From an uncultured Gammaproteobacteria bacterium (lineage in GTDB: Bacteria; Patescibacteriota; Patescibacteriia; 2-12-FULL-57-11): a stretch of DNA of 64,000 nt. Below, piece after piece: positions 9,133 to 46,052 of the stretch. The DNA lies in contig CAZYLV010000002.1 in the NCBI GenBank assembly GCA_964648865.1, forward strand, positions 15,272 to 79,271, written 5' to 3'. Position 1 is the first letter of the stretch, and each line of letters begins with the position of its first letter. The position numbers and the translations under genes are program-made. The notes under the pieces are model-generated. The model worked only from the letters and a program-made list of their open reading frames with translations. It had not been told where the DNA came from and searched no databases.

Positions 9133-10119
9133 ATGCCTCATGTCCCGTACGGCAACCTCAAAGGGGCCACCGTCCTGGTGACCGGCGCCGCCGGTTTCAT
9201 CGGCTCCCATCTCGTCGATCGGCTCTTGGCCCTCGGCGCGTTCGTGGTGGGCGCGGACAACCTCTCGACCGGCCGCATGGAGAACCTGGCGGGCGCCCGC
9301 AAGGACGAGCGCTTCACCTTCGTCCGTGCCGACGTCAACCGCTTCGAGGAGGTCGCCCAGATCTTCTCCGCGCATCGCATCGACTACGTCTTCCACTACG
9401 CGGCGGTGGTCGGCGTGCAGAACGTCATCGAGCGGCCGCTCGAGGTGTTCAAGGACCTCGACGGCATCAAGTACCTGCTCGCCCTCTCGCACGCCCACCG
9501 CGTCAAGAAGTTCGTCTTCGCCTCGTCGTCGGAGGCCTACGGCGAGCCGGTGGAGCTGCCGGAACGCGAAGAGGGCATCCTCAACGTCAACGCCGACGAT
9601 CCCTACGGGCTGACCAAACTGGTGGGGGAGAACATGGTCCGCAACTACTGGCGCCGGTTCCGGCTGCCCGGCTGTTCGCTGCGGTTCTTCAACGTCTACG
9701 GCCCGCGGCAGAACGCCACGCCCTACGGTTTCGTCGTCGGCATCTTCATCACACGCGCCCTGGCGGGCGAGCCGCCGGTCATCTTCGGCGACGGCACGGC
9801 GACGCGTGACTTCGTCTACGTCGACGACAACGTCGAAGCGGCGATCCGCGCCCTGCTGCTCGAGACGACCAACGGACAGACGCTCAACGTCGGCAGCGGC
9901 AACCAGACCACCGTCGGCGAGCTCGCGGCGCAGGTGGTGACCTTGTCCGGCAAGGCGCTGCGCCCGATGCGCGAGCCGGAGCGCGCCATCGAGGTCAAGT
10001 ACCGCTGTCCGGACGTCACCAAGATGCGCGAGCTGCTCGATTTCGAGCCGCAGGTGCATCTCCAAGAGGGACTGCGGCGGACCTTCGACTGGTACCGGTC
10101 CGGTGCCCATGGCTCCTGA
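9133..10119 (+). CDS. NAD-dependent nucleotide-sugar epimerase/dehydratase (SDR family)
   Basis: VLVTGAAGFIGSHLVDRL Rossmann motif and a YxxxK catalytic region. An alternative start lies at 9094. Confidence 0.8.
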   Translation: MPHVPYGNLKGATVLVTGAAGFIGSHLVDRLLALGAFVVGADNLSTGRMENLAGARKDERFTFVRADVNRFEEVAQIFSAHRIDYVFHYAAVVGVQNVIERPLEVFKDLDGIKYLLALSHAHRVKKFVFASSSEAYGEPVELPEREEGILNVNADDPYGLTKLVGENMVRNYWRRFRLPGCSLRFFNVYGPRQNATPYGFVVGIFITRALAGEPPVIFGDGTATRDFVYVDDNVEAAIRALLLETTNGQTLNVGSGNQTTVGELAAQVVTLSGKALRPMREPERAIEVKYRCPDVTKMRELLDFEPQVHLQEGLRRTFDWYRSGAHGS

Positions 10120-32451: not shown

Positions 32452-34271
32452 AGATGCCGTGGTGGGTCGTCGCGCTCGGCGCCGTCGCCGCGACCATGCT
32501 CTTCAACCTCACCCAGATCCTGGTGCTCATCGAGGTGCTGCGGCAGGGCGGGGCCTACAACTACTTCACGTTCCTGGGGCCGGACGCGATGGTCAACCTC
32601 GCGCCGATGCTGCGCGACGTGCTTGATGGCCATCTGCGCATCGCCGACGGCCGCGTCCTCGAGCATGTGCACCTGCCGAGCCTGTGGTCGAACGTGACCC
32701 CGTACCTCGTGGCCCCGTTCATCCTCGCCGCGCGCTCGGTGCCCTACGGATTGTTCGTCGGCCGCATCGTGGTGGTCCTGGTCTCCTTCCCGCTGGCGTA
32801 CCTCATCGCCCGGCGGCTGGTCGGCGACGCACGTTGGGCGATGGCGTACGCGTTGCTCTTCTTCGGGCCGACCTTCCTGGGGCTCTACGCGTTCCCTGTC
32901 TCGCGCGAGGGGATCGGGATCCTCTTCCATGCGATCGTGCCGTTCGTCGAGCCGGCGCATGGGGTGCTGCTGAGCAAGTACAACAGCTTCTCCGTCCTGC
33001 CGACGCTCCCGATCTTCCTCGCCGTGACGCTCTTCCTGCTCGTCTGGCTCCAGGAGAAGAAGCGTTGGGCCGCGGCCGCCGCCGGACTCTCCCTCGGGCT
33101 CCTGCTTTCGACCTACGCCACGAGCGCCATCTATCTCGGTGCGGCGATCGGCATGCTCTTCGTCGGCGCGCTCGTCCGGCGTGCCTGGCGGGACGTACGG
33201 CACCTGCTGCTCCTCGGTCTGGCCGCGTTGCCGACCGGCGCCTACTTCATCGTCAACTACTTCACCATCCGCGCGCTGCCGCACGCCGCGGAGTTCTACG
33301 ATCGGCTGAGCGGCGACATCACGCATGCCTTCCGCTGGAGCGCCTGGCCGGAATACGCGGTGTACGCCGCGCTGGCCGCGGCGGTCGTCTGGGCCGCGCG
33401 GCGCGCGAAGGCGGTCGAGGCAGGGCGGCTCGTCGCGGCGCTGCTCCTCTCCGGCATCGTGGTCTGGAACATCCAGGTCCTGACCGGCTACAACCCGGCG
33501 CCGCCGGTCTGGCGCATCCACCAGATCTTCTTCGGGATGGGCCTGGCGGCGTTCTTCCTCGCGCATCGCCTGGTGGCGGAACTGCGGCAGCGGCGGGCGG
33601 CATGGGGGAAGGCCGCTGTCGCGGTCCTGCTGCTCATCGCCACGAGCGCCACCGTCCAGGTGGTCCGCGCGGAGGTCTCGCTGGCGCGCGACCAGGCGCC
33701 GCGTGCGGCCGTCCCGTCGGCGCTCGAGGCCTCGTTCGTCTGGATCGACGGGCACGCGCCGCGCGACGCCGTCTTCGCCAGCCCCTCGCTCGTCTCCGAC
33801 GCCCTCCTGCCGATGCGCACCCACGCCCGCGTGGTCATGCCGCGGGCCATCACCTCGCCCGCCCCGCAGGAGGAGATCCTGGACCGCTGGCTCGCCACGT
33901 ACGCGCTGTTCGACGCGCCCGTGGAGCGGTTCGAGGCGGCCCTGCGCGGCGATGTCGAGGCGGACGACCCGTACGCCTTCAACGCGGAGAACGGGTTGCC
34001 GATCCAGCTCTACGAGTACGCCTTTTTCCCGCACGACCTGGATTACTTCCGCACGCCGCGCAAGAAGGCCATCCCCGAGGACGTCATCCGGACGTTGCTC
34101 GAACGGTATCGGGCGTATCCCCGCGACCTTTCCGCCATCGCCGGGAAGTACCGGCTCGACTACCTCTACGTCGGTCCGTACGAGGAGCGTTTCGCCGGAC
34201 GCGACTTCGACGCCGAGCCGGGCCTGACCAAGGTCTATGATGCGGACGGCGTGCGCATCTACGGCCTATGA
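32448..34271 (+). CDS. Large polytopic membrane protein, putative GT-C-type glycosyltransferase / polymerase
   Basis: About 10 predicted TM helices in the first ~380 aa, then a ~200-aa soluble C-domain. No named motif recognised. Context: two DPM1-like lipid-sugar synthases in the locus. Confidence 0.4.
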   Translation: MKMPWWVVALGAVAATMLFNLTQILVLIEVLRQGGAYNYFTFLGPDAMVNLAPMLRDVLDGHLRIADGRVLEHVHLPSLWSNVTPYLVAPFILAARSVPYGLFVGRIVVVLVSFPLAYLIARRLVGDARWAMAYALLFFGPTFLGLYAFPVSREGIGILFHAIVPFVEPAHGVLLSKYNSFSVLPTLPIFLAVTLFLLVWLQEKKRWAAAAAGLSLGLLLSTYATSAIYLGAAIGMLFVGALVRRAWRDVRHLLLLGLAALPTGAYFIVNYFTIRALPHAAEFYDRLSGDITHAFRWSAWPEYAVYAALAAAVVWAARRAKAVEAGRLVAALLLSGIVVWNIQVLTGYNPAPPVWRIHQIFFGMGLAAFFLAHRLVAELRQRRAAWGKAAVAVLLLIATSATVQVVRAEVSLARDQAPRAAVPSALEASFVWIDGHAPRDAVFASPSLVSDALLPMRTHARVVMPRAITSPAPQEEILDRWLATYALFDAPVERFEAALRGDVEADDPYAFNAENGLPIQLYEYAFFPHDLDYFRTPRKKAIPEDVIRTLLERYRAYPRDLSAIAGKYRLDYLYVGPYEERFAGRDFDAEPGLTKVYDADGVRIYGL

Positions 34272-35788
34272 CGCCCCGCCTGCTGGTCTTCTTCGTGGAT
34301 GGCGGGACATGGACGCTGCTCAAGCCCTGGATGGAGCAGGGGAAGCTTCCGGCGTTCGCGCGTCTCGCGCGGGACGGGGCGACGGCGACGCTCGAGAGCG
34401 TCATCCCCACCGAGACGAGCTATGCGACGGCGGCCTTCGCGCTCGGCAAGCATCCGGCGGCGCTCGGCGCCTTCGCCCCGGGGTCGCGCGGCTTGATCCC
34501 GGCGACCTCCGAGGGTTTCTCGGGCACACGTCTCTGGGAGGCGCTCGGCGAGGCCGGTCACCGCACGCTCGTCATGGACTTCCCGGGCACCTGGCCGCCG
34601 CGAACGGTGAACGGCGTCTTGTTCACCGGCTTCTTCACTCCCGAGGACGCCGAGGACCACATCGTCCCGCCGGAGATCCGTGCGCGGTATCCCGACTATC
34701 CGCGCGGGGGGAGCGAACTCGTCCGCATGCTCGACCAAGGGAAGGATGCGTTGCGTGACAAGGTCTTCGAGGTCACGCGTCGGCGCTTCGCCGCGTTCCG
34801 GGATGCCTGCCGGCGGGAGCCGTACGCCTTCGCCTGCTTCTACGTGAAGGGGACGGACCTGCTCCAGCACTATTTCTGGGACGATCCGGCGACGCTGCTG
34901 GATTACTGGACGGCCGTCGACGGCATGCTGGCTGAGGCGCTAGCGGACGGCTGGACGCACGTCCTGGTGGCCTCGGACCACGGCTTCGACGCGGCCCCCC
35001 GCACGACGTTCTCCACCAACCGCTGGTTGGCCGACGAGGGCTTCCTGCGCCTCACGGCGCGCTCCGGCGCGGGCGGCGCGGTCCGGCGGTTCCTTGCCGC
35101 GCATCCCGGTCTGGCGCGTGCCTACTACCAAGCCCGGCATCGCCTGGTCGGGTCGCGTCCGGCCGCGCGGACCGCCGTGGCCGCCGACCATCTGGTGGAG
35201 AAGGCCGAAGGCAGCGGCACGGTCAGCAAGGACGTCGACGTCGCCAAGAGCGCGGCCTACGCGCCCGGCGGCGCCCTCAACGGCAAGGGCATCTATCTCA
35301 ACCGCACGGCCACGCCACCCGGGTCGTCGGCGTACGACGAGCTGCGGGAGCGCATCATGGCACGCCTGGCCGCGGTGCGTCTCGGCGATGCTCCGGCGTT
35401 CCGCGCCGTGCTGCGCGGCGAAGATGCCTATCCGGGCACCGAGCCGGCCGCCATCCCGGATATCGTGCTGCAGCCGGTACCCGGACTGTTCGTCGAGGCG
35501 CGGGTCGGTCGGGCGGCCATCGGTCCGCGGGAGACCCGCAGTCGGGCGCTCGGTCATCACCTCGCGTCGCCGGACGGGATCCTCATCTGCCGCGGGCCCG
35601 ACATCGCTCCGGGGGAGCGGGGGACCGTCTCCATCCTCGATATGTACCCGACCGTCCTGGCCTGGTACGGTGTCGGCGGACCTGCCGATCTCTCCGGCGC
35701 GGCCGTGCCCTCGCTGCTCGGGCGTGCTCACGTGTCCGCGGCCGATGACGCCGCCGCGCGTCGGGCGATCGGCGAACTGGACCTCTGA
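34268..35788 (+). CDS. Alkaline-phosphatase superfamily protein (type I phosphodiesterase/nucleotide pyrophosphatase / sulfatase-like), paralog 1
   Basis: LLVFFVDGGTW N-terminal metal-site motif and VLVASDHGFD (SDHG). Confidence 0.65.
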   Translation: MTPRLLVFFVDGGTWTLLKPWMEQGKLPAFARLARDGATATLESVIPTETSYATAAFALGKHPAALGAFAPGSRGLIPATSEGFSGTRLWEALGEAGHRTLVMDFPGTWPPRTVNGVLFTGFFTPEDAEDHIVPPEIRARYPDYPRGGSELVRMLDQGKDALRDKVFEVTRRRFAAFRDACRREPYAFACFYVKGTDLLQHYFWDDPATLLDYWTAVDGMLAEALADGWTHVLVASDHGFDAAPRTTFSTNRWLADEGFLRLTARSGAGGAVRRFLAAHPGLARAYYQARHRLVGSRPAARTAVAADHLVEKAEGSGTVSKDVDVAKSAAYAPGGALNGKGIYLNRTATPPGSSAYDELRERIMARLAAVRLGDAPAFRAVLRGEDAYPGTEPAAIPDIVLQPVPGLFVEARVGRAAIGPRETRSRALGHHLASPDGILICRGPDIAPGERGTVSILDMYPTVLAWYGVGGPADLSGAAVPSLLGRAHVSAADDAAARRAIGELDL

Positions 35789-35789
35789 T

Positions 35790-37181
35790 ATGCCCCGTGT
35801 CTTTTTCTTCGGCGTCGACGGCATGCCTCCGCAATGGGTGCTCGACCGCTGGCTGCCGGAGCTCCCGACCTTCAAGCGCCTGGCCGACGCCGGATGCAGC
35901 GGCCGCATCATGAGCACCGTGCCGCCGACGTCCATCGCCGCCTGGACGTCGATCTTCTCCGGCTGCGACCCGGGGCGCCACGGCATCACCGGCTACGTGC
36001 GGCGTCCGCATCCGCCGTCGGTCGAGATGGGGCTCGTCGACGCCACCGACGTGCGCGTGCCGCGGCTCTGGGACGTGCTCACCGCCCAGGGCAAGCGGTC
36101 CATCGTGCTCAACGTGCCGATGACCTATCCCGTGAGGCCGTTCGAAGGCGTGATGGTCAGCGACTTCCTGACACCCGGCTTCGACGGCCCGAGCGTGCAT
36201 CCCGAGTCCTTCAAGAAGGACATCGTGGACCTGCTGGGACACCCGTACAGCTTCGACGTCTCGGAGTTCGGCGGCTACCGGCGCCTGACCAGCGAGGAGC
36301 TCGTGGAGCGCGTCTTCGCCATGACCGATGAGCATGTGCGTCTGGCAGAGCGGCTGCTCGACGGGCCATGGGACCTTTTCGTCTGGGCGACGCTCGGCAG
36401 CGATCGCCTGCACCACACGCTCTGGCGCTACCTGGATCCGAGCCATCCCCAGCACGAGCGGCACCCGGTCTTCTCCTCGGCCATCCTCGACTACTACAAG
36501 AAGCTCGATGGCGTGCTTGCGCGGATGCTCGAACGCCTGACGCCGGAGACCACGGTCATCATCTCTTCCGACCACGGCATGGCCACGATGCACGGCCGCG
36601 TCAACCTCAACGACTGGCTGTTGCGCGAGGGGTACCTCGTGCTCAAGGACGACTTCGCCGCCGAGGTGCGCGAGGGGCCGAAGAAGCTCGCCCTCTCCCG
36701 GGTCGATTGGGACCGCACCCGGGCCTTCGGGTTGGGCGCGTATGAGGCGCTCCTCTATCTGCATCCGGAGAAGAAGGACCAGGACCCCGCGGCCTACGAC
36801 GCGCTGTTCGCCGAGATCGCCGAGGGGATCGCCGCCATCCCCGGTCCGGACGGGCGCAGGTTGGAGACGGTGGTGCATCGGCTCGACCGCCTCTACGGCG
36901 ACGCCGCGCTTGCCGAGGCGCCGGACGGCGTGGTCTACTTCGATGGGCTGGCCATGGGAGCCAATTGCGACGTCGGCAACAACGGGCTCCACTCCTGGGC
37001 CAATACGGTCGGGCCGGACGACGGCCTGCATGCGCCGGAGGGGACCCTCATCATGAGCGGTCGCGGCGTGCCGCAGCGCGACGGCGTGCGTTGCTCCGTG
37101 ACCGACCTGGCACCGACCATCCTCCGGCTGCTCGATTGTCCCGTGCCAGAGCATATGACCGGCAAGGACATCCTGGTATGA
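35790..37181 (+). CDS. Alkaline-phosphatase superfamily protein (type I phosphodiesterase-like), paralog 2
   Basis: VFFFGVDGMPPQW, TVIISSDHGMA. Paralogous to 34268-35788. Confidence 0.65.
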   Translation: MPRVFFFGVDGMPPQWVLDRWLPELPTFKRLADAGCSGRIMSTVPPTSIAAWTSIFSGCDPGRHGITGYVRRPHPPSVEMGLVDATDVRVPRLWDVLTAQGKRSIVLNVPMTYPVRPFEGVMVSDFLTPGFDGPSVHPESFKKDIVDLLGHPYSFDVSEFGGYRRLTSEELVERVFAMTDEHVRLAERLLDGPWDLFVWATLGSDRLHHTLWRYLDPSHPQHERHPVFSSAILDYYKKLDGVLARMLERLTPETTVIISSDHGMATMHGRVNLNDWLLREGYLVLKDDFAAEVREGPKKLALSRVDWDRTRAFGLGAYEALLYLHPEKKDQDPAAYDALFAEIAEGIAAIPGPDGRRLETVVHRLDRLYGDAALAEAPDGVVYFDGLAMGANCDVGNNGLHSWANTVGPDDGLHAPEGTLIMSGRGVPQRDGVRCSVTDLAPTILRLLDCPVPEHMTGKDILV

Positions 37182-37402
37182 CCGACAAAGCCAAACGCAA
37201 GTTCACCTCGGTCTCCATCCCGACGTTCCTCTTCGAGAAGATCAAGGAGCGGATGGGGAGGAGCGGCTTCCCGTCGGTCTCGAGCTACGTGGCCTACGTG
37301 TTGCGGGAAGTGCTCACCGACTCCCAGCCGGACGCCGCTTTGACTCGGGACAATGCAGAAAAAGTCAAGGAGCGGCTACGCTCCTTGGGCTATATCGACT
37401 AG
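37178..37402 (+). CDS. Small ribbon-helix-helix (CopG/Arc-like) DNA-binding protein, paralog 1
   Basis: 74 aa. KFTSVSIPTFLFEKIKERMGRSGFPSVSSYVAYVLREVL fits a beta-strand + two helices RHH pattern. The C-terminal tail ...KERLRSLGYID is shared with 43493-43708. Confidence 0.55.
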   Translation: MTDKAKRKFTSVSIPTFLFEKIKERMGRSGFPSVSSYVAYVLREVLTDSQPDAALTRDNAEKVKERLRSLGYID

Positions 37403-37417
37403 TTTTCCACAGAGAGG

Positions 37418-37446
37418 AGACCCTGCCGCTTGGCAGGGTCTTTTGG
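37418..37446 (+). terminator. Rho-independent terminator
   Basis: AGACCCTGCC-GCTT-GGCAGGGTCT stem-loop followed by TTTTGG. Confidence 0.6.
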
Positions 37447-37450
37447 CTAT

Positions 37451-37488
37451 GTCATCATATGTAATGATTAGTAATTACGGGTAATGAG
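37451..37488 (+). promoter_or_regulatory. AT-rich island with three GTAAT repeats at 10-bp phasing (candidate operator/promoter of the phosphonate module)
   Basis: GTCATCATAT GTAATGATTA GTAATTACGG GTAATGAG directly abuts the start codon at 37489. The local AT content is far above the ~70% GC background. Confidence 0.35.
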
Positions 37489-38256
37489 ATGACTCCTCGG
37501 ACTGCCATTATCGTCGCTGCGGGCATGGGGAACCGCCTGCGGCCGCTGACGGAGGATCGTCCCAAGTGCCTGATTGAAGTCGGCGGTCAGACCATGCTGG
37601 AGCGCGCCGTCCGCATCCTGCGTGGCGTCGGCGTTCCAGAATTGGCCATCATCCGCGGCTATCGCGGCGGGCAGATCGCGGTCGACGGCGCGCGGTACTT
37701 CGAGAACCCTGAGTACGCGCACAACAACATCCTCCATTCTGCCTTCTGCGCCGAAGAGGCCATGGCCGGAGGCTTCCTGCTGTCCTACAGCGACATCGTC
37801 TACCGGCCCTCTGTGGCAGAAGCGGCGTGCGCGACGGACGAAGACATCGCCGTGGTCGTCGATCGCGATTGGAAGCGCGCCTACGAGGGGCGTGACCTGC
37901 GCATGGAGGATGAAGCCGAGGTGGTCCTCGACGCCGATGGGGCGATCAGGAAGATCGGCAAGGGGGCGGTCTCGCCGGAGGAGGCGACCGGCGAGTTCAT
38001 CGGCATGGCGACGTTCTCCGGGCGCGGCGCGGACGTCCTGCGCGCGGAGTTCCATCGCCTGCTCGAGGCCTACCGCGGCCGCTTCGATGAGCCGTTCCAG
38101 CGGGCCGCGTCCTTCCGTAAGGCATACCTGACGGACATGCTCCAGGAACTCGTCGACCGCGGGGTGCGCGTCGGCGTGGTCCCTATCCACGGCGGTTGGC
38201 GGGAAATCGACACGCCGCAGGACCTGGAGCGCGCCAGCCGATTGTTCGCTTCATGA
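37489..38256 (+). CDS. MobA-like/LicC-like nucleotidyltransferase (sugar-/alcohol-phosphate cytidylyltransferase candidate)
   Basis: AIIVAAGMGNRLRPLTEDRPKCLIEVGG N-terminal NTP-transferase signature. About 255 aa. Confidence 0.7.
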   Translation: MTPRTAIIVAAGMGNRLRPLTEDRPKCLIEVGGQTMLERAVRILRGVGVPELAIIRGYRGGQIAVDGARYFENPEYAHNNILHSAFCAEEAMAGGFLLSYSDIVYRPSVAEAACATDEDIAVVVDRDWKRAYEGRDLRMEDEAEVVLDADGAIRKIGKGAVSPEEATGEFIGMATFSGRGADVLRAEFHRLLEAYRGRFDEPFQRAASFRKAYLTDMLQELVDRGVRVGVVPIHGGWREIDTPQDLERASRLFAS

Positions 38257-38260
38257 CCGT

Positions 38261-39610
38261 ATGACGGACCTCCGCAGGAAACGGGAAGGTGCGCTGCTGC
38301 TCGCCGTCCTCAACGACCTCAAGCGCAACGACGAGGTCGCGGCGCAGGAGCTCGGCGTCCCGCTCGAGGAGCTGCGTTCGTGGCTGCGCGGCGATGCCGA
38401 GATGCCCCGCGCGGCGAAGGAACGCGCCGCCGCCATCTGGCCGGTCAACATCCGGGACCTCGAGGTGGTCGAGGATGACGCGCCCGACGGGGTCCGCATC
38501 ATGCGCGCCGCGGAGTCGGAGGCGAGCGAGCGCATCCTCTCGCGCGCCGGCACGCCCTACTACGCCTATCGCGACACGGCCATGTCACGTACCGCGGCGT
38601 TCCGTCCCGAGTGGATCGCGGAGCTGGTCTCCGTCGACGGCGCCGACGCGGACGACCCGGCCGTCCAGTGGAACAACGGCCATCTCCTGCACCAGTTCAC
38701 CTACTTCATCGGTCCCGTCAATTTCTATTATGTCGAGGACGGGCAACGACGCGTCGCCGCCATGGAGACCGGCGATACCATGTACATCACGCCGTTCGTG
38801 CCGCATTCCTTCACGACGCGTAGGACCCCCGAAGGGACACGCGGGCTGATCCTGGCGCTGACCTTCGGCGGGCGGCTCATCGGCGACGCCCATCAGGAGC
38901 TCTCCGTGCTCGGCGAGCGACGCGCCCGGGCGTTGCGCCTGGGGGATGCCGTGGGCGACCAAGGGACGGCCGAGCTGCTGCGGCGCCGCATGCGCGACGC
39001 GCTCCACGCGCAGGATTCCTTGGCGGCCGCGAGCGGCGTGCCGCAGGACCGCCTCGCCGCTCTCCTCTCCGGGGCGCGCGCCTCGCCGGACGAGTTGCGG
39101 TCGCTGGCGGCGGCGCTGGGCGTCAATGTCCGCGACCTCCTGGGGCACGATGCCTCGGAGCCTGCCGTCATCATCGAGAGGCGCGACGCCGGGGAGGAGC
39201 GGGGATCCTCCACGGCCACGGTCCGCCCCCTGGCCGGTACCAGTCGGATGCCGGACATGCGGGCCTTCGAGCTGACGCTCCCGCCCGGCGATGGGACGCA
39301 CGGCCTCGAGACGGACCTGCACCAGTACGGCTACGTGCTCGCCGGGAAGGTCGCCCTGACCTGGGACGCCGACGGCACGGAGCGGCGCGAGGTGTTGGCG
39401 CAGGATGACTCCTTCACCATGAAGCCCGGTACGCCGCATCGCCTCATGGCCACGGACGGGCCGGCGCGGCTCCTGCTCCTGCGCATCGGCGGGGCGCTCT
39501 CCGGTGATGCGCGGCTCGAACTCTCGGCCATCGACGCCGGCGGCATCGGTCGGGCCGTCTCGGAATCGACGCAGTGGTACACGCCGTCCGGTTCGCGCGG
39601 CGTCTCATGA
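38261..39610 (+). CDS. Bicupin non-heme-iron oxygenase of the HEPD/MPnS/HppE family (tandem HTH-like + cupin repeats); MPnS-like candidate
   Basis: 449 aa with two repeats of a helix-turn-helix-like segment plus a cupin barrel. The first cupin has a putative metal site H141-x3-Q145...H182. It sits inside the Ppm-Ppd-ADH phosphonate module. Confidence 0.55.
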   Translation: MTDLRRKREGALLLAVLNDLKRNDEVAAQELGVPLEELRSWLRGDAEMPRAAKERAAAIWPVNIRDLEVVEDDAPDGVRIMRAAESEASERILSRAGTPYYAYRDTAMSRTAAFRPEWIAELVSVDGADADDPAVQWNNGHLLHQFTYFIGPVNFYYVEDGQRRVAAMETGDTMYITPFVPHSFTTRRTPEGTRGLILALTFGGRLIGDAHQELSVLGERRARALRLGDAVGDQGTAELLRRRMRDALHAQDSLAAASGVPQDRLAALLSGARASPDELRSLAAALGVNVRDLLGHDASEPAVIIERRDAGEERGSSTATVRPLAGTSRMPDMRAFELTLPPGDGTHGLETDLHQYGYVLAGKVALTWDADGTERREVLAQDDSFTMKPGTPHRLMATDGPARLLLLRIGGALSGDARLELSAIDAGGIGRAVSESTQWYTPSGSRGVS

Positions 39611-39629
39611 ACCGACCTGATCCAACCAT

Positions 39630-41273
39630 ATGACCAAAGCCAAGAAGCTCCGTGCGCTCCTCGCCGATCCCGCAAAGACCATCGTCATCGCCGGCGCCCA
39701 TAACGGCCTGTCCGCCAAGCTGGTGGAGGAGGCCGGCTTCGAGGGCGTCTGGGCGAGCGGCTTCGAGATCGCCACCTCCCACGCCGTGCCCGACGCCAAC
39801 ATCCTGACGATGGACGACACGCTGCGCGCCGCCAAGGACATGAACGACGCCGTCGGCATCCCGGTCATCGCCGACTGCGACAACGGTTTCGGCAACGCCA
39901 TCAACGTCATCCGCACCGTGCAGGAGTTCGAGCGTGCCGGCATCGCCGCGATCTGCATCGAAGATAACCAGTTCCCCAAACGCTGCAGCTTCTATTCCGG
40001 CGTGAAGCGCGAGCTGGAATCCGTGGAGGAGTTCGCCGGCAAGATCCGCGCCGCCACGCAGGCCCGCAAGGACCCGGACTTCGTGGTCATCGCCCGCACC
40101 GAGGCCATCATCGCCGGCTGGGGCGTGGAGGAGGCGCTGACCCGCGCCAACGCCTACGCCGACGCCGGCGCGGACATGGTGGTCATCCACTCCAAGTCGC
40201 CGGATCCGGGCGAGATCGCCGAGTTCGCGCGCCGCTGGCAGCGCCCGGTGCCGCTCATCGCCATCCCGACCATCTACAAGGACACCTCGGTCGACGATCT
40301 GGCCAAGATGGGCTTCAAGCTCGTCATCTTCGCCAACCACGCCATGCGCTCGTCGATCAAGGCCATGCGCGAGACGCTGCAGACGCTCCGCACGAGCAAC
40401 GTCGCCGCCTCGGTCGAGGACCGCGTGGTGCCGCTCACCGACGTCTACCAGATCGTCAGCCTGTCCACGATGAAGGAACAGGAAGCGGCGTTCCTGCCCA
40501 AGTCGCCGCCGCCCACCAAGGCGCTCATCCTCGCGGCGGGCGCGCCGCACAACGGACTCGAGGCCGAGGGCAAGCCTGTCTGCCTGCTGGAGGTGAAAGG
40601 CAAGACCATCCTGGACCGTCAGCGCGAGCTCTTCGAGTCCATGGGCATCGGCTCCGTGGCATTGGTGCGCGGCTTCGGTGCCGACCGCATCAGCGCGTCC
40701 GGGATCCGCACCTACGACAATGCCGCGTTCGACAGCACGCTGAACGCGGCCTCGCTGCTCGCGGCCGCCGACGAGCTCGACGGTCCGATCGTCATCTCCT
40801 ACGGCGACGTCATCTTCAACCGCGAACTCCTGCAGCAGCTGCTCGAACGTCGTGCCGACGTGACCGTGGCCGTCGATCACTCCTGGCGCGAGCGCTATGC
40901 CGCCAACAAGCAGGTCCGCCCCGGCACCGAGCTCGTGGTCACGGAACGCACGCCGGCCGTGACCAACGGGTATCTGGTGGACGTCGGTCCGAACCACGTG
41001 AAGGCGGTCGGTGCGGCCGTCGACCCGGCTGCCGCCAATGCCGAGTTCATCGGCCTGGCACGGTGCACGGAACGCGGTGCGACGCTGCTCGCCGAGACGC
41101 TCAAGGAGCTCAAGGCGCGCGACGCCGCGCGCTTCGCCAAACTGCGCCTGGCCGACGTCCTGGCCGAACTCGTCGCGCGCGGCGTCGCCGTGGAGACGCT
41201 CGACGTCTACAAGGGCTGGATCGACGTCGACACGCTGCTCGACTACCGCGCGGCGCTCGCCGAGGTCGCCTGA
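39630..41273 (+). CDS. Fusion: PEP mutase-like (ICL/PEPM superfamily) N-domain + LicC/PntC-like cytidylyltransferase C-domain
   Basis: N-terminal PEP-mutase fold (AGAHNGLSAKLVEEAGF, IADCDNGFGN, ICIEDNQFPKRCSF). C-terminal NTP transferase (LILAAGAPHNGLEAEGKPVCLLEVKGKTIL). The EDKx5NS motif is altered to EDNx5CS. Confidence 0.7.
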   Translation: MTKAKKLRALLADPAKTIVIAGAHNGLSAKLVEEAGFEGVWASGFEIATSHAVPDANILTMDDTLRAAKDMNDAVGIPVIADCDNGFGNAINVIRTVQEFERAGIAAICIEDNQFPKRCSFYSGVKRELESVEEFAGKIRAATQARKDPDFVVIARTEAIIAGWGVEEALTRANAYADAGADMVVIHSKSPDPGEIAEFARRWQRPVPLIAIPTIYKDTSVDDLAKMGFKLVIFANHAMRSSIKAMRETLQTLRTSNVAASVEDRVVPLTDVYQIVSLSTMKEQEAAFLPKSPPPTKALILAAGAPHNGLEAEGKPVCLLEVKGKTILDRQRELFESMGIGSVALVRGFGADRISASGIRTYDNAAFDSTLNAASLLAAADELDGPIVISYGDVIFNRELLQQLLERRADVTVAVDHSWRERYAANKQVRPGTELVVTERTPAVTNGYLVDVGPNHVKAVGAAVDPAAANAEFIGLARCTERGATLLAETLKELKARDAARFAKLRLADVLAELVARGVAVETLDVYKGWIDVDTLLDYRAALAEVA

Positions 41274-41274
41274 T

Positions 41275-42384
41275 ATGGTGGACGCACGCGCATTCGTCTC
41301 GGCGCTCGGCGCGGAAGGGTACCGGCTCGCCAGCGGCGTCCCATGTTCGCTGCTGGACACCTTCCTCGAGGCGCTCGATGGCCAGCAGGAGATCGCCCAC
41401 GTCCGGGCGGCCAACGAGGGAGACGCCCTGGCGATCGCCGGCGGCGCCGTCATGGGCGGGACGCCGGCGGTCGTCTATCTGCAGAATTCGGGACTCGGCA
41501 ACCTCATGAATCCGCTGACATCGATGACCGAGATGTACCGGTTGCCGACGCTCATGATCGTCACCTGGCGCGGCAACCCCGCGCGCAGCAAACCGGACGC
41601 ACCCGAGCACGCGTTGATGGGGGAGAAGACCCCGGCCTTCCTGGAGCTGTTCGGCATCCCGCACCGCATCATGCCGGACGACGACGCCGGCGCGCGCCAG
41701 GCGCTTGCCGAGATGTCCGCCGCCGCCCGTGCGCGTCGCGGCACCGCGGCGCTCATCGTCCCGGAAGGGCTGTTCGCCGCGGCGCATGCGCATGAGGCGC
41801 ATCCCGGCTTCACCCGGCAGGACGCCATCCGTGCCCTCCTCGGCCGCGCCCGTCCGGACGATCTCTTCGTGGCGACGACCGGCTTCACGGCGCGCGACCT
41901 CCAGGCCGTCCGCAAGGAGCGCGGCGAGACGAGCGACCGTGATTTCTCGATGATCGGCTCGATGGGGTGCGCCGCACCGATCGGCCTCGGCTTGGCCCAA
42001 GCCTCGGGCAAGCGCGTGGTGGTGCTCGACGGCGACGGCGCGCTCCTGATGCGCATGGGTGTCCTCTCGACGATCGGCTCCCTCCGCCCGCGGAACCTCG
42101 TGCACGTCGTCTTCGACAACGCCGCATACGAGAGCACCGGCGGCCAGGCCACGACCAGCCCGACCACGGACTTCGCCGCCGCCGCGCGCGCCTGCGGCTA
42201 CCCCGAGGCCGTCGTCGCGACGGATGCCGTGGCTGCGGCGCAGGCCTTCTCCGATGCGCCTGGCCTGCGCATGATCGTCTGCAGGGTCCCCGGCAGCACC
42301 GGCGCACCGGCCCCGCGCATCGCCGCCGAACCGGCGGACATCGCCCAAGACATCCGGCGCAGCGTGGGCGCTCCCCCCTTGTGA
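41275..42384 (+). CDS. ppd: Phosphonopyruvate decarboxylase (ThDP-dependent; sulfopyruvate decarboxylase-like family)
   Basis: Single-chain alpha+beta ThDP enzyme, 369 aa. GDGALLMRMG ThDP-binding motif. Adjacent to the PEP mutase-like gene. Confidence 0.7.
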   Translation: MVDARAFVSALGAEGYRLASGVPCSLLDTFLEALDGQQEIAHVRAANEGDALAIAGGAVMGGTPAVVYLQNSGLGNLMNPLTSMTEMYRLPTLMIVTWRGNPARSKPDAPEHALMGEKTPAFLELFGIPHRIMPDDDAGARQALAEMSAAARARRGTAALIVPEGLFAAAHAHEAHPGFTRQDAIRALLGRARPDDLFVATTGFTARDLQAVRKERGETSDRDFSMIGSMGCAAPIGLGLAQASGKRVVVLDGDGALLMRMGVLSTIGSLRPRNLVHVVFDNAAYESTGGQATTSPTTDFAAAARACGYPEAVVATDAVAAAQAFSDAPGLRMIVCRVPGSTGAPAPRIAAEPADIAQDIRRSVGAPPL

Positions 42385-43496
42385 CCTCCTTCCGCTTCCG
42401 CAACGCGTCGGTGACGAGCGGCGCAGGCGCGCTCGAGGTCCTGCGCACGTCGGCGCTGGACACGCGCGTCTTCGTCGTCTCCGGCCGGCATGTCGTCTCC
42501 GATCAGGTCCTGCATCGGCGCGTCACGTCGGCGCTCGGCGAGCGCCTCGTCGGTTGGGAAGCCGTCACGCCGCTTCCGTCCGAGGAGGGGGTCGGCCGCG
42601 TCGCGGCGCGGGCACGCGCGTCGGCCGCCGACACCGTCGTGGCCATCGGCGGCGGCTCGGTCATCGACACCGCCAAGACGGTCTCCGTGTTGGCCGCCAA
42701 CGCGATGGACGTGCGCGACGCGCTCGCCGGCGCCCTGGCCGACGCCACCGTGAAGCTGCGGACCGTCGCCGTGCCGACGCTGTGCGGCAGCGGGAGCGAA
42801 GTGACCCCGTTTTCCGTCCTGTACGCCGACGCGAGGAAGCACTCGCTCGAGTCGCCCCTGCTCCAGCCGGATATCGTGCTGGCGGATCCCGACGTGGTGC
42901 TCGCGCCGCCGGCGCCGCCCGCCAGCGCCGCCTTCCTGGATGCCGTCGCTCAAGCCGCGGAATCCTTGTGGGCCGTGCGTGCGGATGCCGAAAGCGAGGG
43001 GCACGCCGGGCGCTGCCTCGCGGCGGCCGCGGCGTTCCTCCAGCAGGACGATCCCGCGCTGCGCCGGGCCTCGCTCGGCGCGCTGTCGCTTGCCGGCGGC
43101 ATGGCCATCGCCATCTCCCGCACCACTGCGGCGCACGCCTTGTCCTACCCGTTGACCATCCTCCACGGCGTCCCGCACGGCGTCGCCTGTGTCGCGACGC
43201 TCCCGGCGGTGCTCGCCTGGAACGCCGACGTGCAGGAGGAGGACTGTCTCCATCCCCGCGGATCGGCCTTCGTGCGGGAGCGGGTGGCCGAGATCGCGGC
43301 ACTGCTGGACACGCTGGGCGGCGTGACGGGCGTCGCGGAGCGGTTGCGGGTGCCGGTGCGGTTGGGGGAGTGGGGCATCGGCGAGCGCGACCTGGATGCC
43401 TTGGTGGCGGCTTGCGCCAACCCGGAGCGCATGAACAACAACCCCCGCAGGATCACCGCGGAGGCCGTCCGTGCGCTGTACGCGCAGGCGCTCTAA
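42381..43496 (+). CDS. Iron-containing (group III) alcohol dehydrogenase, phosphonoacetaldehyde reductase candidate (PhpC/FomC/Pdh-like)
   Basis: VAIGGGSVIDTAK, GSGSEVT motifs. GTG start overlapping the upstream stop (GTGA). Confidence 0.7.
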   Translation: MTSFRFRNASVTSGAGALEVLRTSALDTRVFVVSGRHVVSDQVLHRRVTSALGERLVGWEAVTPLPSEEGVGRVAARARASAADTVVAIGGGSVIDTAKTVSVLAANAMDVRDALAGALADATVKLRTVAVPTLCGSGSEVTPFSVLYADARKHSLESPLLQPDIVLADPDVVLAPPAPPASAAFLDAVAQAAESLWAVRADAESEGHAGRCLAAAAAFLQQDDPALRRASLGALSLAGGMAIAISRTTAAHALSYPLTILHGVPHGVACVATLPAVLAWNADVQEEDCLHPRGSAFVRERVAEIAALLDTLGGVTGVAERLRVPVRLGEWGIGERDLDALVAACANPERMNNNPRRITAEAVRALYAQAL

Positions 43497-43708
43497 TCGA
43501 TGTATCCGAGGCTGCGGAGCCGATCGCGGACCGTGGCCTCCTGCTCGGCCGTATAGCGCTGCGTCGGCGTCTCCAGCCGGTCGCCGATCTTGTCCGCCAT
43601 CTGCCGCAACGCCCAGGCGAGATAGGCCTCGACCGAGGCGTATCCCTTCTCTGCGGCGCGTTTGGCGAAGCGGTCGTAGAGGTCTTGAGGGATTTCGATA
43701 TTCGGCAT
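43493..43708 (-). CDS. Small ribbon-helix-helix DNA-binding protein, paralog 2
   Basis: 71 aa. NIEIPQDLYDRFAKRAAEKGYASVEAYLAWALRQM plus the C-terminal ...RDRLRSLGYID. Convergent with the phosphonate module. Confidence 0.55.
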   Translation of the reverse strand: MPNIEIPQDLYDRFAKRAAEKGYASVEAYLAWALRQMADKIGDRLETPTQRYTAEQEATVRDRLRSLGYID

Positions 43709-43764
43709 AGACTGGGGGCAACTCACGGGCGATGATAGCACCGTCCCAGGACGGTGTCGATGGT

Positions 43765-44691
43765 ATGGAACACGTGCGATGCGCAATCTGCGGGACCGCC
43801 GACGCGGCGGTCGTGGCCACGCGCGGCTCGCTCGAAAAGGGCGGACCGACGCTCGCGATGCGCAACGTGATGTGCCGCCGGTGCGGCCTCGTGTACATGG
43901 ATCCACGGCCGACCGCCGAGGAATACGCCGAGCAGTATCGGCGGTTCGAGAAGCACCGCTACGGCATCGACAGCCAGGAGGGGGCCGACGCCTTCGTCGC
44001 CGAGCGCGGCGCGCGCTTCGATAAGGCGGACCTGATCCGTTTCGTCGCCTCGCATGTCGCGGTGCCTCCGGGGTCGATCCGTGCGCTCGACGTGGGCTGC
44101 GCCCATGGCCTCTTCTCGGAGCAGCTCAAGCGCACGCTCGGCTGCGCGGTGCAGGGCGTCGAACCCTCGGAGCGCCTGGCTGCCGCGGCCCGCAAGCGGG
44201 CGGAGATGGACGTCTTCGTCGGCACTCTCGATGCGTTCCTGAAGGCGCACCCGGATGCGGGCGGCTTCCACCTCATCGTGCTGAGCCATGTCTTCGAGCA
44301 CTTCCCGGATCCGCACGCCGCGCTCGAGGGCCTGCGTCGGCTGCTCGCGCCCGAGGGCGTGGTCTACGTCGAGGTCCCGGATGTCTCCCATTTCAAGAAG
44401 ACCATGGACCGGTTCTTCGACCTCTTCCACCCCTACTCCTACAGTCCGGCGACGCTCTCGCGGCTGTTGGAGCGCAACGGATGGAAGGCCATCGGCCGCG
44501 CCGACACCAAGAAGTACCGCCTCCAGGCCATCATCGCTCCGGAACGCCATCCGATGCCCGCGACCCGTTGGACCGAGGGAGGCGACCCGCGCGCGCTGAT
44601 GGCCGCGCTGCGCGCCAAGCGGCGTTGGGACGCCCTGCGGCGCGTGGCTGCGCCGATCGCGCGTCTGGTCCCGCGCCGACCCGTCGCATGA
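43765..44691 (+). CDS. Zn-ribbon + class I SAM-dependent methyltransferase (paralog family A, member 2)
   Basis: MEHVRCAICG...CRRCGLVYMDPRPT, then LDVGCAHG motif I. Clear paralog of 31480-32451. An alternative start lies at 43732. Confidence 0.75.
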   Translation: MEHVRCAICGTADAAVVATRGSLEKGGPTLAMRNVMCRRCGLVYMDPRPTAEEYAEQYRRFEKHRYGIDSQEGADAFVAERGARFDKADLIRFVASHVAVPPGSIRALDVGCAHGLFSEQLKRTLGCAVQGVEPSERLAAAARKRAEMDVFVGTLDAFLKAHPDAGGFHLIVLSHVFEHFPDPHAALEGLRRLLAPEGVVYVEVPDVSHFKKTMDRFFDLFHPYSYSPATLSRLLERNGWKAIGRADTKKYRLQAIIAPERHPMPATRWTEGGDPRALMAALRAKRRWDALRRVAAPIARLVPRRPVA

Positions 44692-46052
44692 CCCTCTCAC
44701 GCACCGTCCTCTCCGGCGTCTCGACGCTCGGCGGAGCCAACGTGGCCACGCGGCTGCTGTCCTTCGTCTCCGTCCTGCTCATCACCCGCGGCCTCTCGCT
44801 CGAGGGCTACGGCATGTTCCAGCTCGCGTTGGCCACCGTCGCCCCCGCGGCCACCTTGACCGCATGGGGGCTCGAGGCCGTGGTGCTCTCCGAAATCAGC
44901 CGCGCCGTCGGCACGCAAGCGTTCGGCCGCGCCAAGCGGCTCATGCTGAGCTTCGCGCGCAACAAGATCCTGCTCTCGGTGGCGCTCGTCGCCCTCGCCT
45001 GGCTCTTCCGGCCGCTGGTCGTCGCCCGCTTCGGCGGGTTCCTCAACGAGTACTTCGTCATCCTCAGCGTCTGGGTCGTCGCCAACGAGGCGTTGGCTGC
45101 CGTCGCGCTCCTGCTCCATGCGCACACGCGGTTCAAGGCCATGGCGGCCATGACCGTGGCCGAGCCGATCTTCCGTTTCGCGGCGGTCCTGGTGCTCTGG
45201 CAGCTCAAGGGCTTCACGCCGGTCACCGTCATCGGCGCGTACCTCGTGGGCAAGGCCGGCAGCGCGCTGATCGGCCTGCCGGCCATGGCGCGCGTGCTCG
45301 CGGGCTACCGAGGCGTCGCCGCCGACCCCGAGCGGACGTTCTGGCAGATGGTCCGCGGCCACGGCAAGTGGGGGGCCGTCTCCCAGGCCATCATCCCGCA
45401 GATCGACAGCACGCTGCGTCCGTGGATCACCAATCTCATGCTCGGCACCCAGGCCGTGGCCTTGGTCTCCGTCTCGACGACGGTCTTCTCGGCGCTGACC
45501 AGCCTCCTGCCGGTGCAGAAGGTGCTCATGCCCATCGTGGCGCGTGAGAGCGCTGACCGCCGCAAGGCCGCGCTCATCGCCCAGAAGGCGTCCAAGTACA
45601 GCCTCCTTGCGTACCTGGCGTTCGGCGCCGTGGCGGCGCTCGCGGTCGGGCCGTTCGTGCGGTTCTTCTTCCCCTACTACGGGGATTCGATCCTGCTCAT
45701 CCTCATCACGCTCCTGCGTTTGCCGTTCACCGCCGTCACGCCCGCCCATGACGCGCTCTTCAACGCCTATCGTCTGCAGAAGGGCTTGGCGGGCCACACT
45801 TTCCTCAAGCTGGTGTCGGACGTCACGCTGCTGCCGCTATCCATCCTGGCGTTCGGCATCGCCGGCATGTATTGGGAGCGCCTGCTCAACGTCGCGCTGA
45901 CGACGGTCCTGCGCGAGCGCTACCTGCGGTCACGGGCCCATCTCGCGGCCATCTCGTTGCGGAACCTCGTCGTTTTTGATAATACCGACGTCATGCTGCT
46001 GAAGATGGTGACCTCGCGGTTGCCCTTCTTCCGGCCACGTCCTTCCTCGTGA
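44688..46052 (+). CDS. Wzx-like polysaccharide/oligosaccharide flippase (MOP superfamily)
   Basis: About 12 predicted TM helices, the 'polysaccharide biosynthesis protein' family pattern. ATGA overlap. Confidence 0.65.
   Translation: MTLSRTVLSGVSTLGGANVATRLLSFVSVLLITRGLSLEGYGMFQLALATVAPAATLTAWGLEAVVLSEISRAVGTQAFGRAKRLMLSFARNKILLSVALVALAWLFRPLVVARFGGFLNEYFVILSVWVVANEALAAVALLLHAHTRFKAMAAMTVAEPIFRFAAVLVLWQLKGFTPVTVIGAYLVGKAGSALIGLPAMARVLAGYRGVAADPERTFWQMVRGHGKWGAVSQAIIPQIDSTLRPWITNLMLGTQAVALVSVSTTVFSALTSLLPVQKVLMPIVARESADRRKAALIAQKASKYSLLAYLAFGAVAALAVGPFVRFFFPYYGDSILLILITLLRLPFTAVTPAHDALFNAYRLQKGLAGHTFLKLVSDVTLLPLSILAFGIAGMYWERLLNVALTTVLRERYLRSRAHLAAISLRNLVVFDNTDVMLLKMVTSRLPFFRPRPSS

Follow-up and report, generated by a model that had tools for sequence, protein, structure and literature searches.

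Two small proteins of predicted ribbon-helix-helix (RHH) type, named here RHH-1 and RHH-2, flank a block of phosphonate genes (37489-43496) in a 64,000-nucleotide stretch of bacterial DNA from contig CAZYLV010000002.1; this whole stretch is called the window below. RHH-1 is very probably the repressor of this block, because the sole array of its predicted binding boxes in 64 kb sits over the promoter and the 5' end of the module. In the joint explanation that we favor, with a probability of about 0.6, a dimer of RHH-1 would repress the methylphosphonate module through tandem boxes, RHH-2 would read a different site and the C-terminal tail common to both proteins would be a protein contact element. 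The features carrying this reading are as follows.

37178-37402, + strand: RHH-1, a ribbon-helix-helix protein of 74 amino acids with the strand TSVSIP, two helices, an acidic linker and a C-terminal helix ending RLRSLGYID; predicted repressor
37418-37441, followed by TTTTG to 37446, + strand: hairpin with a perfect 10-bp stem and a 4-nt loop; terminator-like end of the upstream operon
37430-37458, + strand: sigma-70-like promoter (TTGGCA, 17-nt spacer, (TG)CATCAT), one of two promoter-like sites in 37000-44000
37448-37487, + strand: predicted operator array of four 10-bp boxes, TATGTCATCA TATGTAATGA TTAGTAATTA CGGGTAATGA, from the -10 element to the start codon at 37489
43493-43708, - strand: RHH-2, 71 amino acids, a diverged paralog with the strand PNIEIP and a tail identical to that of RHH-1
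43732-43760, - strand: sigma-70-like promoter of RHH-2 (TCGACA, 17-nt spacer, (TG)TATCAT)
43739-43756, no strand: candidate RHH-2 operator, the perfect palindrome CACCGTCC-ca-GGACGGTG inside the spacer of the RHH-2 promoter

The initial annotation of this DNA had described both open reading frames as paralogs with a common tail that bracket the phosphonate genes, and this description was confirmed. Using BLASTP, RHH-1 and RHH-2 were aligned over their whole length (23/69 identities, E 6e-14); the last nine residues, RLRSLGYID, are the same in both, and the identity elsewhere is ~23%. Judging from this alignment, they are true paralogs. Both are taken as real genes, since relatives exist for each: 141 homologs of RHH-1 were found in a word-indexed search, and RHH-2, which has few close relatives, has orthologs of 27-73% identity in six other loci, among them L010, L098, L096, L090 and L091. 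The ATG of RHH-1 overlaps the stop codon of the upstream PF01663 gene 2 (gtATGAcc), and the stop codons of RHH-2 and of the convergent gene of an iron-dependent alcohol dehydrogenase (Fe-ADH) overlap at 43493-43496.

Between RHH-1 and the module, the order is the stop codon of RHH-1, hairpin, promoter, four boxes and the ATG of the nucleotidyltransferase gene at 37489. The pattern TAATTANNTNTAATTA, with up to three mismatches, matched the window (69.6% G+C) only at 37452-37487, with six matches against 0.08 expected. Scanning of both strands with a three-box matrix gave +27.9 bits for 37458-37487 and +23.3 bits for 37448-37477; the best score in the rest of the window was -34.5 bits, and the window mean was -99.9 (standard deviation 15). 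The hairpin, which fell short of the terminator-calling rule, and the TTGGCA element are conserved in L010 and L098, and the layout of hairpin, boxes and ATG is kept in L010 (RHH-1 84% identical) and L098, where flanking sequences differ. Orthologs of the nucleotidyltransferase gene begin directly 3' of the boxes. In L096 and L097, whose RHH-1 is 67-75% identical, an operon encoding phosphoenolpyruvate (PEP) mutase, decarboxylase, alcohol dehydrogenase (ADH) and nucleotidyltransferase is preceded by a promoter made up of the array TTGACTAATTACATATAATTACATATAATTAG. The promoter of the supply module carries boxes in five loci of the window's clade.

The position of the boxes over promoters favors occlusion, i.e., repression. 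Activation of the module by RHH-1 seems unlikely to us: it would couple supply to demand, as RHH-1 is expressed together with the PF01663 enzymes, the presumed consumers of the product of the module, and some RHH proteins do activate transcription, but the boxes extend from the -10 element to the start codon in the window, lie between the -35 and -10 elements in L096 and L097 and follow TATA-like elements in archaea, and all these positions are typical of occlusion.

The boxes were defined on relatives of RHH-1. The DNA located 5' of the homologs holds arrays such as TAATTAAATATAATTA and ATATAATTACATATAATGAAATATAGTTAAATATAATTA, and a matrix obtained from the genome set (80 loci, 76 of them with a recognizable RHH open reading frame) has the consensus TATATAATTA, repeated as tandem 10-bp boxes. 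Upstream of the genes, the half-site TAAT[TG]A has a frequency of 4.7 per 120 bp, compared with 0.19 elsewhere in the same loci, and at least three half-sites were found in 59 of 74 loci. The units are spaced by 10 bp in 51 cases and by 20 bp in 26 cases, and 2-5 tandem boxes lie over promoters. When the genome-set matrix was applied to an independent metagenome set, retrieved via the tail pattern, at least two adjacent boxes were detected within 130 bp upstream in 43 of 59 genes, against a background of 0.27% of 120-bp windows. Arrays are present in archaea, Actinomycetota, Chloroflexota and the window's clade.

The occurrence of boxes follows one residue of the putative DNA-reading strand. 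Among non-redundant members with Ser before [IL]P (xSIP), boxes accompany 75% of 106 (median +18.7 bits), a figure that includes no phylogenetic correction; in members with Gln, Glu, Lys or Arg at this position, boxes were found in 0 of 13 (medians -22 to -31). Recognition of the boxes by the RHH strand would produce such covariation.

Neither RHH-1 nor RHH-2 gave a match reaching the Pfam or NCBIfam threshold, and no PF01402 match was obtained for the window proteins. A profile search of 1.84 billion cluster representatives (50% identity) yielded 2038 members at E <=0.001 and 724 at E <=1e-10, and relatives are encoded in 384 species-level genomes. The 141 word-index homologs span Actinomycetota, Patescibacteria, Thermoplasmatota, Altiarchaeales, MSBL1 and others, and their annotation, where given, is 'CopG family'. 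The family consensus is KFTTVSIPxxLFxKIKERIxGTGFTSVSSYVTYVLREVL, followed by an acidic linker and EDEEKVKERLRxLGYLD. In the AlphaFold model (pLDDT 77), an extended N-terminus to residue 15 is followed by helices 16-27, 34-47 and 57-69, the first two of which agree with the RHH plan of a strand and two helices of ~12-15 residues.

The family profile aligns in register with the RHH domains of NikR (E 0.085-0.15), as does the hhalign comparison with Escherichia coli NikR (E 0.0048), and 10 of 85 members match PF01402 below the threshold (best E 0.002). Residues G30, F31, S33 and S35 are invariant or nearly so and align with the G-x-x-x-S turn of NikR (G-Y-x-x-R-S), at which RHH proteins have a Ser, Thr or Asn that caps helix 2 and contacts phosphate. 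A Foldseek search with the RHH-1 monomer gave no significant match, and its top matches were RHH proteins; this result is expected, because the fold exists only as a dimer, in which the strands pair. On the basis of the NikR register, the weak PF01402 matches, the AlphaFold model and the evidence of DNA boxes, RHH-1 and RHH-2 are assigned to a putative new, so far unmodelled RHH family of Arc/MetJ/CopG type with a conserved C-terminal helix. A literature search for a link of RHH or CopG proteins to ATP sulfurylase, 3'-phosphoadenosine-5'-phosphosulfate (PAPS), phosphonate or the LGY motif returned nothing relevant.

Several relatives have unusual architectures (P0125, P0136, P0138, P0130, P0140, P0165 and P0230). 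P0125 combines a generic RHH, an RHH-1-like and an RHH-2-like unit in one chain, P0136 is a tail-less RHH-2-like unit fused to an RHH-1-like unit, P0138 is a single RHH carrying two tails, and some proteins of ~207 amino acids carry one more RHH at the N-terminus, together with an unknown domain of 90 residues. The three-RHH fusion P0125 was tried as a stand-in for the dimer and abandoned, the single-sequence model being unusable (pLDDT 42). Paired paralogs occur in another lineage as well: L121 has two tandem family members (9964-10204 and 10526-10753) whose strand reads VTLK[IV]P and whose tails are complete, and none of the sulfate, PF01663 or phosphonate genes was found within 10 kb of them.

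RHH-2 differs from its paralog in the strand, where PNIEIP has Asn and Glu at the positions of the two Ser residues of the family (in the NikR register), and no boxes of TAAT[TG]A type were found upstream of its gene. With such a strand and the covariation described above, RHH-2 should read a different site. RHH-2 and its orthologs always adjoin flippase or methyltransferase genes, and its target is probably its own promoter, which is shared with the divergent methyltransferase-flippase genes. The suggestion of the initial annotation that the pair controls the phosphonate module is thus not supported for RHH-2: this protein belongs with the flippase/methyltransferase side, has another DNA-reading strand and lacks the boxes. 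The methyltransferase ortholog of L010 starts at residues matching position 43765 of the window (MEHVRCAICG vs MEQTHCPIC), so the true start of the methyltransferase is probably there, which leaves a divergent intergenic region of 56 bp.

The palindrome in the RHH-2 promoter was considered as a family-wide operator and rejected, being conserved in none of L010, L090 and L091. Members with Gln or Glu in the strand (L136, L150, L154, L164 and L172) lack TAATTA boxes and have a common upstream element, CCGAAGGGAATATCTATCG or GAATATC; the related TATCATCG stands 5' of RHH-2 in the window and in L010, and in relatives the element lies at 900-960 of L099 and 10620-10650 of L010. It may be a different operator or merely a -10 box.

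Four of the five invariant columns of the family fall in the C-terminal tail, which follows a linker of ~5 to 40 residues and, as in P0138, can be duplicated. A six-frame scan of the window with [LIVM][RKQE]x[LIVM]GY[LIVM] returned the two RHH C-termini and one unrelated internal match, with no others. RHH-1 and RHH-2 are the sole bearers of the tail in the window, the window's own PF01663 proteins lacking it. The initial annotation had presented the tail as a property of the pair; it is indeed shared by both, but it is not private to them. In L102, a sulfatase-family protein of 458 amino acids (838-2214) encoded directly 5' of an RHH homolog ends YSKKDEKKVKERLRALGYID, and the adjoining RHH protein ends FTKEDEKNVKERLRALGYID. 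Among the best 120 homologs of this enzyme (P0274-P0393; PF00884/PF01663; several archaeal and bacterial phyla), 98 end L-[RK]-x-L-G-Y-hydrophobic. In these enzymes, the motif ...(K)ERLRxLGY[ILVM] comes after a variable, often acidic linker, and solved sulfatases align only as far as the residues before it; one tail-bearing enzyme sits in a glycan cluster without RHH.

A similar C-terminus is common to four unrelated families of sulfate activation and transfer. CysD encoded next to RHH homologs ends MMQKLRSLGYM (L007 3438-4220; L103, L111, L119, L134 and others), and adenosine-5'-phosphosulfate (APS) kinases end KLxxLGY[IL] (L009, L011 and L077). Weaker forms of this ending exist elsewhere: solved APS kinases in general end LGYL, and CysD of P. 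syringae ends KKRQGYF. Mimicry of the APS kinase C-terminus was rejected as an explanation of the tail, as solved homologs show similar endings and this likeness, taken by itself, may reflect a generic way of capping a helix. More weight attaches to the 20 nearly identical residues that end sulfatase-family proteins than to the resemblance with APS kinase and CysD. A proteasome HbYX-type motif was also discarded, since Tyr, by inspection, is not penultimate in most members. Nothing on the C-terminal motif was found in the literature.

The properties of the tail fit a tethered helix for protein-protein contact. Since members of the family come from archaea and bacteria and from several kinds of operon, such a helix must have a universal partner. 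Self-association of tails, giving cooperativity on adjacent boxes, is the simplest candidate, and docking among tail bearers is a more novel one. In an extended version of the latter, which we put forward tentatively and think rather improbable, the tail (~15-20 residues following an acidic linker, ...EEKVKERLRxLGY[IL]D) would be a pathway-specific docking helix common to repressors and enzymes of sulfate activation and transfer, namely sulfatase-family transferases and, in a weaker version, APS kinase and CysD, with regulation by sequestration in archaea and bacteria. If this were true, contacts of tails with one another or with a hub would couple oligomerization of the repressor on the boxes to the occupancy of the enzyme machinery, and tails would join RHH-1 to RHH-2, linking control of the methylphosphonate promoter to the flippase/methyltransferase promoter 6 kb away.

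Sharing of the tail with enzymes also allows for the idea that these proteins are non-regulatory adaptor subunits of a sulfation/phosphonylation machinery, in which the RHH part only dimerizes, the tail docks and another factor occupies the AT-rich boxes. In favor of it, no segment of the family is better conserved than the tail, which is also found on sulfatase-family enzymes and is similar to the endings of APS kinase and CysD, and RHH-1 is translationally coupled to a PF01663 gene. However, the presence of boxes follows a strand residue of the RHH protein, no other gene of DNA-binding type is consistently located beside the boxes in both archaea and bacteria, and the PF01663 proteins of the window have no tail, and we regard adaptors as an unlikely solution.

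Gene neighborhoods show what the family usually accompanies. In the first four other contigs, the homolog opens a sulfate-activation operon that lies within a glycan cluster. The next same-strand gene downstream, determined for 76 loci, encodes ATP sulfurylase in 42 and a PF01663 protein in 21; the genes that follow encode a DHH phosphoesterase (40 loci), a small sulfotransferase-like protein (32) and a sulfate symporter (21). According to tblastn, the 80 genome loci contain APS kinase in 60 cases, ATP sulfurylase or APS kinase in 65, PF01663 in 33 and PEP mutase in none. ATP sulfurylase, APS kinase or CysD/CysN is present in 30 of the 37 metagenome loci of at least 6 kb, and PEP mutase is again found in none of the 37. 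The family leads sulfate-activation operons in ~95 of 117 related loci, and its usual role appears to be that of a leader gene of operons for sulfate activation (PAPS) and glycan sulfation in Thermoplasmatota and several other phyla. No sulfate-activation genes were found in the window itself.

The initial annotation had also proposed dedicated transcriptional control of the phosphonate module. Control by RHH-1 is very probable, as boxes occur in the window only at 37448-37487 and relatives have the same arrangement, but dedication to phosphonate is not supported, because the family leads sulfate-activation operons in ~95 of 117 loci, none of these loci has PEP mutase and L010 and L098 carry other cargo. 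The homolog search did not point to a common antitoxin family and connected these proteins mostly with sulfate activation.

The gene order around the pair was established from gene calls and Pfam matches on a public contig identical to the window sequence.

34268-35788, + strand: PF01663 gene 1 (alkaline-phosphatase superfamily; Pfam), conserved block 5' of RHH-1
35790-37181, + strand: PF01663 gene 2 (Pfam), its stop overlapping the RHH-1 start
37489-38256, + strand: NTP_transf_3 nucleotidyltransferase, first gene of the module; the start at 37489 retains the AAGxGxR motif
38261-39610, + strand: predicted methylphosphonate synthase (MPnS), helix-turn-helix and bicupin, match to 6b9s
39630-41273, + strand: PEP mutase-nucleotidyltransferase fusion (Pfam), best solved match 5unc
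41275-42384, + strand: phosphonopyruvate decarboxylase, a thiamine pyrophosphate enzyme (Pfam)
42381-43496, + strand: Fe-ADH (Pfam), phosphonoacetaldehyde reductase by context
43765 (probable start; called from the ATG at 43732), + strand: methyltransferase, divergent from RHH-2
44688-46052, + strand: Wzx-type flippase, divergent from RHH-2, with a Glyphos_transf-like gene listed next

The module most likely represents a pathway of methylphosphonate supply with nucleotidyl activation, because its bicupin protein prefers MPnS 6b9s of N. maritimus (E 6e-101) to HEPD 6b9r (E 9.4e-88) and has Gln, Phe and Ile in the columns of MPnS Gln152, Phe162 and Ile184. In the alignment to 6b9s, the segments GHLLHQ, VNFYY and MYITPFVPH provide His, Gln, Phe, Ile and His, and the corresponding segments of HEPD 6b9r are VNYYF and VWGLPF. 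MPnS reportedly has a 2-His-1-Gln iron site together with Phe162 and Ile184 (N. maritimus numbering), and HEPD is said to have Tyr and Gly instead. The predicted MPnS belongs here to a bacterium with 70% G+C and lies within a cell-surface glycan cluster. The PEP mutase domain has solved PEP mutase 5unc as its best solved match (E 2.5e-89), and its fusion with a nucleotidyltransferase is of a known type (PMC6697681). The diagnostic motif of PEP mutases is EDKxxxxxNS (PMC6697681); the window protein has EDNQFPKRCS near residue 110, where 5unc has EDKRFPKVNS, with both Lys and Asn replaced, and the PEP mutase function is for this reason assigned from the context and with a caveat. Nucleotidyl activation of phosphonates for tailoring has been described (PMC6697681).

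The PF01663 gene pair also precedes RHH-1 in L010 and L097, and the product of gene 2 is 31% identical, over 96% of its length, to PF01663 proteins following RHH homologs in archaeal sulfate operons. In the 33 genome loci mentioned above, RHH is accompanied by a PF01663 subfamily without signal peptide or membrane segments, located between the genes of ATP sulfurylase and APS kinase; the window's clade has genes of this subfamily 5' of phosphonate or nucleotidyltransferase modules. Examples are 34268-37181 of the window, L041 5174-6562 and L004, L009, L016, L070 and L077. The closest solved match of the subfamily is insignificant. Its members are candidate transferases of sulfate or phosphonate to glycans, and their linkage to the supply of either PAPS or nucleotide-activated phosphonate suggests the transfer of anionic groups to glycans.

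Wherever a locus is of sufficient length (the window, L010, L098 and L096), both paralogs are present on the two sides of a supply module, and the cargo differs: nucleotidyltransferase and Fe-ADH only in L010 and L098, and, in L096 and L097, a B12-radical SAM gene together with PEP mutase, decarboxylase, ADH and nucleotidyltransferase. The B12-binding radical SAM gene is placed between RHH-1 and the boxed PEP mutase operon (L096 517-2127 and L097 5873-7483, both on the - strand), which suggests a methylated phosphonate variant replacing the MPnS route. In L096, the regions 5' of RHH-1 and RHH-2 (1-225 and 6325-6546) are paralogous over ~230 bp, with the shared blocks GTATAACAACCT, ACGGCGGCA and AGCGTTTrGCAyCArAGGTTAATAT, and the duplication therefore took in the 5' region.

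These differences in cargo, as well as the duplicated upstream region of the L096 paralogs, would agree with another option of the initial annotation, namely that the pair is left over from the acquisition of a cassette; it would then delimit a mobile or exchangeable unit and have no present regulatory role. Yet both genes are intact and kept across loci at 27-84% identity, conservation extends to the boxes and the promoter, neither a recombinase nor terminal repeats were seen at the module, and the G+C content of the region (0.63-0.74) is the same as in its flanks, with no compositional anomaly and hence no trace of recent acquisition; such an origin of the pair seems quite improbable. A phage origin was rejected, as PHROGs matches were insignificant, and Rfam gave no meaningful RNA element in 37000-44200.

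Type II antitoxins whose toxins are missing or encoded elsewhere are hardly credible, despite the layout of an N-terminal RHH with a C-terminal partner-binding segment and a weak RelB-like match of one member in 85, since no toxin-like gene adjoins the family in ~150 loci, where conserved neighbors are metabolic enzymes, there are no PADLOC matches, and RHH-1 and RHH-2, which the initial annotation had rightly described as RHH-type proteins without toxin partners, adjoin only PF01663, nucleotidyltransferase, Fe-ADH and methyltransferase genes in the window.

The mechanism we favor, with RHH-1 as repressor of the module, may be outlined as follows. RHH-1 would be made from the end of the upstream glycan operon, in translational coupling with the PF01663 gene, and its dimer would read tandem 10-bp boxes with the core TAAT[TG]A through the beta-strand. 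An array of dimers on the four boxes between the -10 element and the start codon would block transcription of 37489-43496. The usual job of the family would be autoregulation of PAPS operons feeding glycan sulfation, and in the window's lineage the regulator and its boxes may have been rewired onto a phosphonate supply module serving the same kind of PF01663 enzymes. RHH-2, with its changed DNA-reading residues, would act at its own promoter, shared with the methyltransferase-flippase genes. The tail would provide contact between neighboring dimers, cooperativity being the most economical role, and possibly also docking to other tail-bearing proteins.

A number of facts weigh against this explanation. 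No boxes precede RHH-1 in the window, so it lacks the autoregulation of canonical loci, and clear boxes are absent in 16 of 59 and 15 of 74 loci. All matches to known RHH models are below curated thresholds, the monomer fold search was not significant, and the statistic of strand/box covariation ignores phylogeny. The presence of the tail on enzymes fits docking at least as well as cooperativity, and the RHH-2 palindrome is not conserved in L010. Finally, a repressor that is produced from the upstream glycan operon and shuts off precursor supply would be physiologically sensible only with an effector.

Methylphosphonate has been proposed as a source of aerobic marine methane, and this locus offers a concrete candidate regulator-operator pair for its synthesis; the literature searched, which was limited to one indexed collection, yielded no regulator for the biosynthesis of methylphosphonate. 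In our opinion, the new elements here are a putative unmodelled RHH family, an unusual shared tail and a predicted operator conserved across the divide between archaea and bacteria. A protein-operator pair kept over such a distance gives a handle for predicting sulfation and phosphonylation regulons from sequences, and the tail shared with sulfatases is an undescribed motif in the literature searched, whose partner is worth finding.

Among known systems, Agl30 and Agl31 of Halobacterium salinarum, glycan sulfotransferases of the alkaline-phosphatase superfamily (PMC11980604), resemble the present case as glycan-cluster proteins of sulfatase-like or alkaline-phosphatase type that add sulfate instead of removing it, in line with the PF01663/sulfatase-like genes linked to the RHH family; the difference is that PMC11980604 concerns enzymes and describes no associated RHH regulator or C-terminal motif. 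The RHH antitoxins CcdA, ParD, RelB and VapB are alike in size and layout but come with a toxin gene, in contrast to the sulfate-activation, PF01663 or phosphonate genes found here. NikR is the best sequence match to any solved protein, with strand, helix, G-x-x-x-S turn and helix in register, although at weak E-values of 0.005-0.15. The alignment of the proteins of 71-74 amino acids stops at residue 50, and they have a final helix of ~13 residues in place of the 90-residue metal-binding C-terminal domain of NikR; the ACT-like metal-binding tetramerization domain is absent, and for this reason they are not NikR.

Mnt, Arc and AmrZ likewise have an RHH core and then a C-terminal helix by which dimers could be assembled into tetramers at neighboring sites, and the tail, by sequence inspection, has a heptad-like V-L-L-L stripe. 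Unlike the Mnt-type tail, the helix here also ends unrelated enzymes and can be duplicated, which to our knowledge is not the case with Mnt-type tails. MetJ, the methionine repressor of E. coli, is a small RHH dimer that binds short boxes, 2-5 of which follow one another head-to-tail over a biosynthetic promoter, and neighboring dimers are expected to be in contact. The boxes described here are also repeated 2-5 times over promoters but measure 10 bp instead of 8 bp; no sequence relationship to MetJ is detectable, and MetJ lacks the tethered C-terminal helix that the RHH-1 family carries behind an acidic linker. By analogy, the proposed mechanism would be most like that of MetJ, Arc or Mnt, with a small RHH dimer acting on tandem boxes over a biosynthetic promoter.

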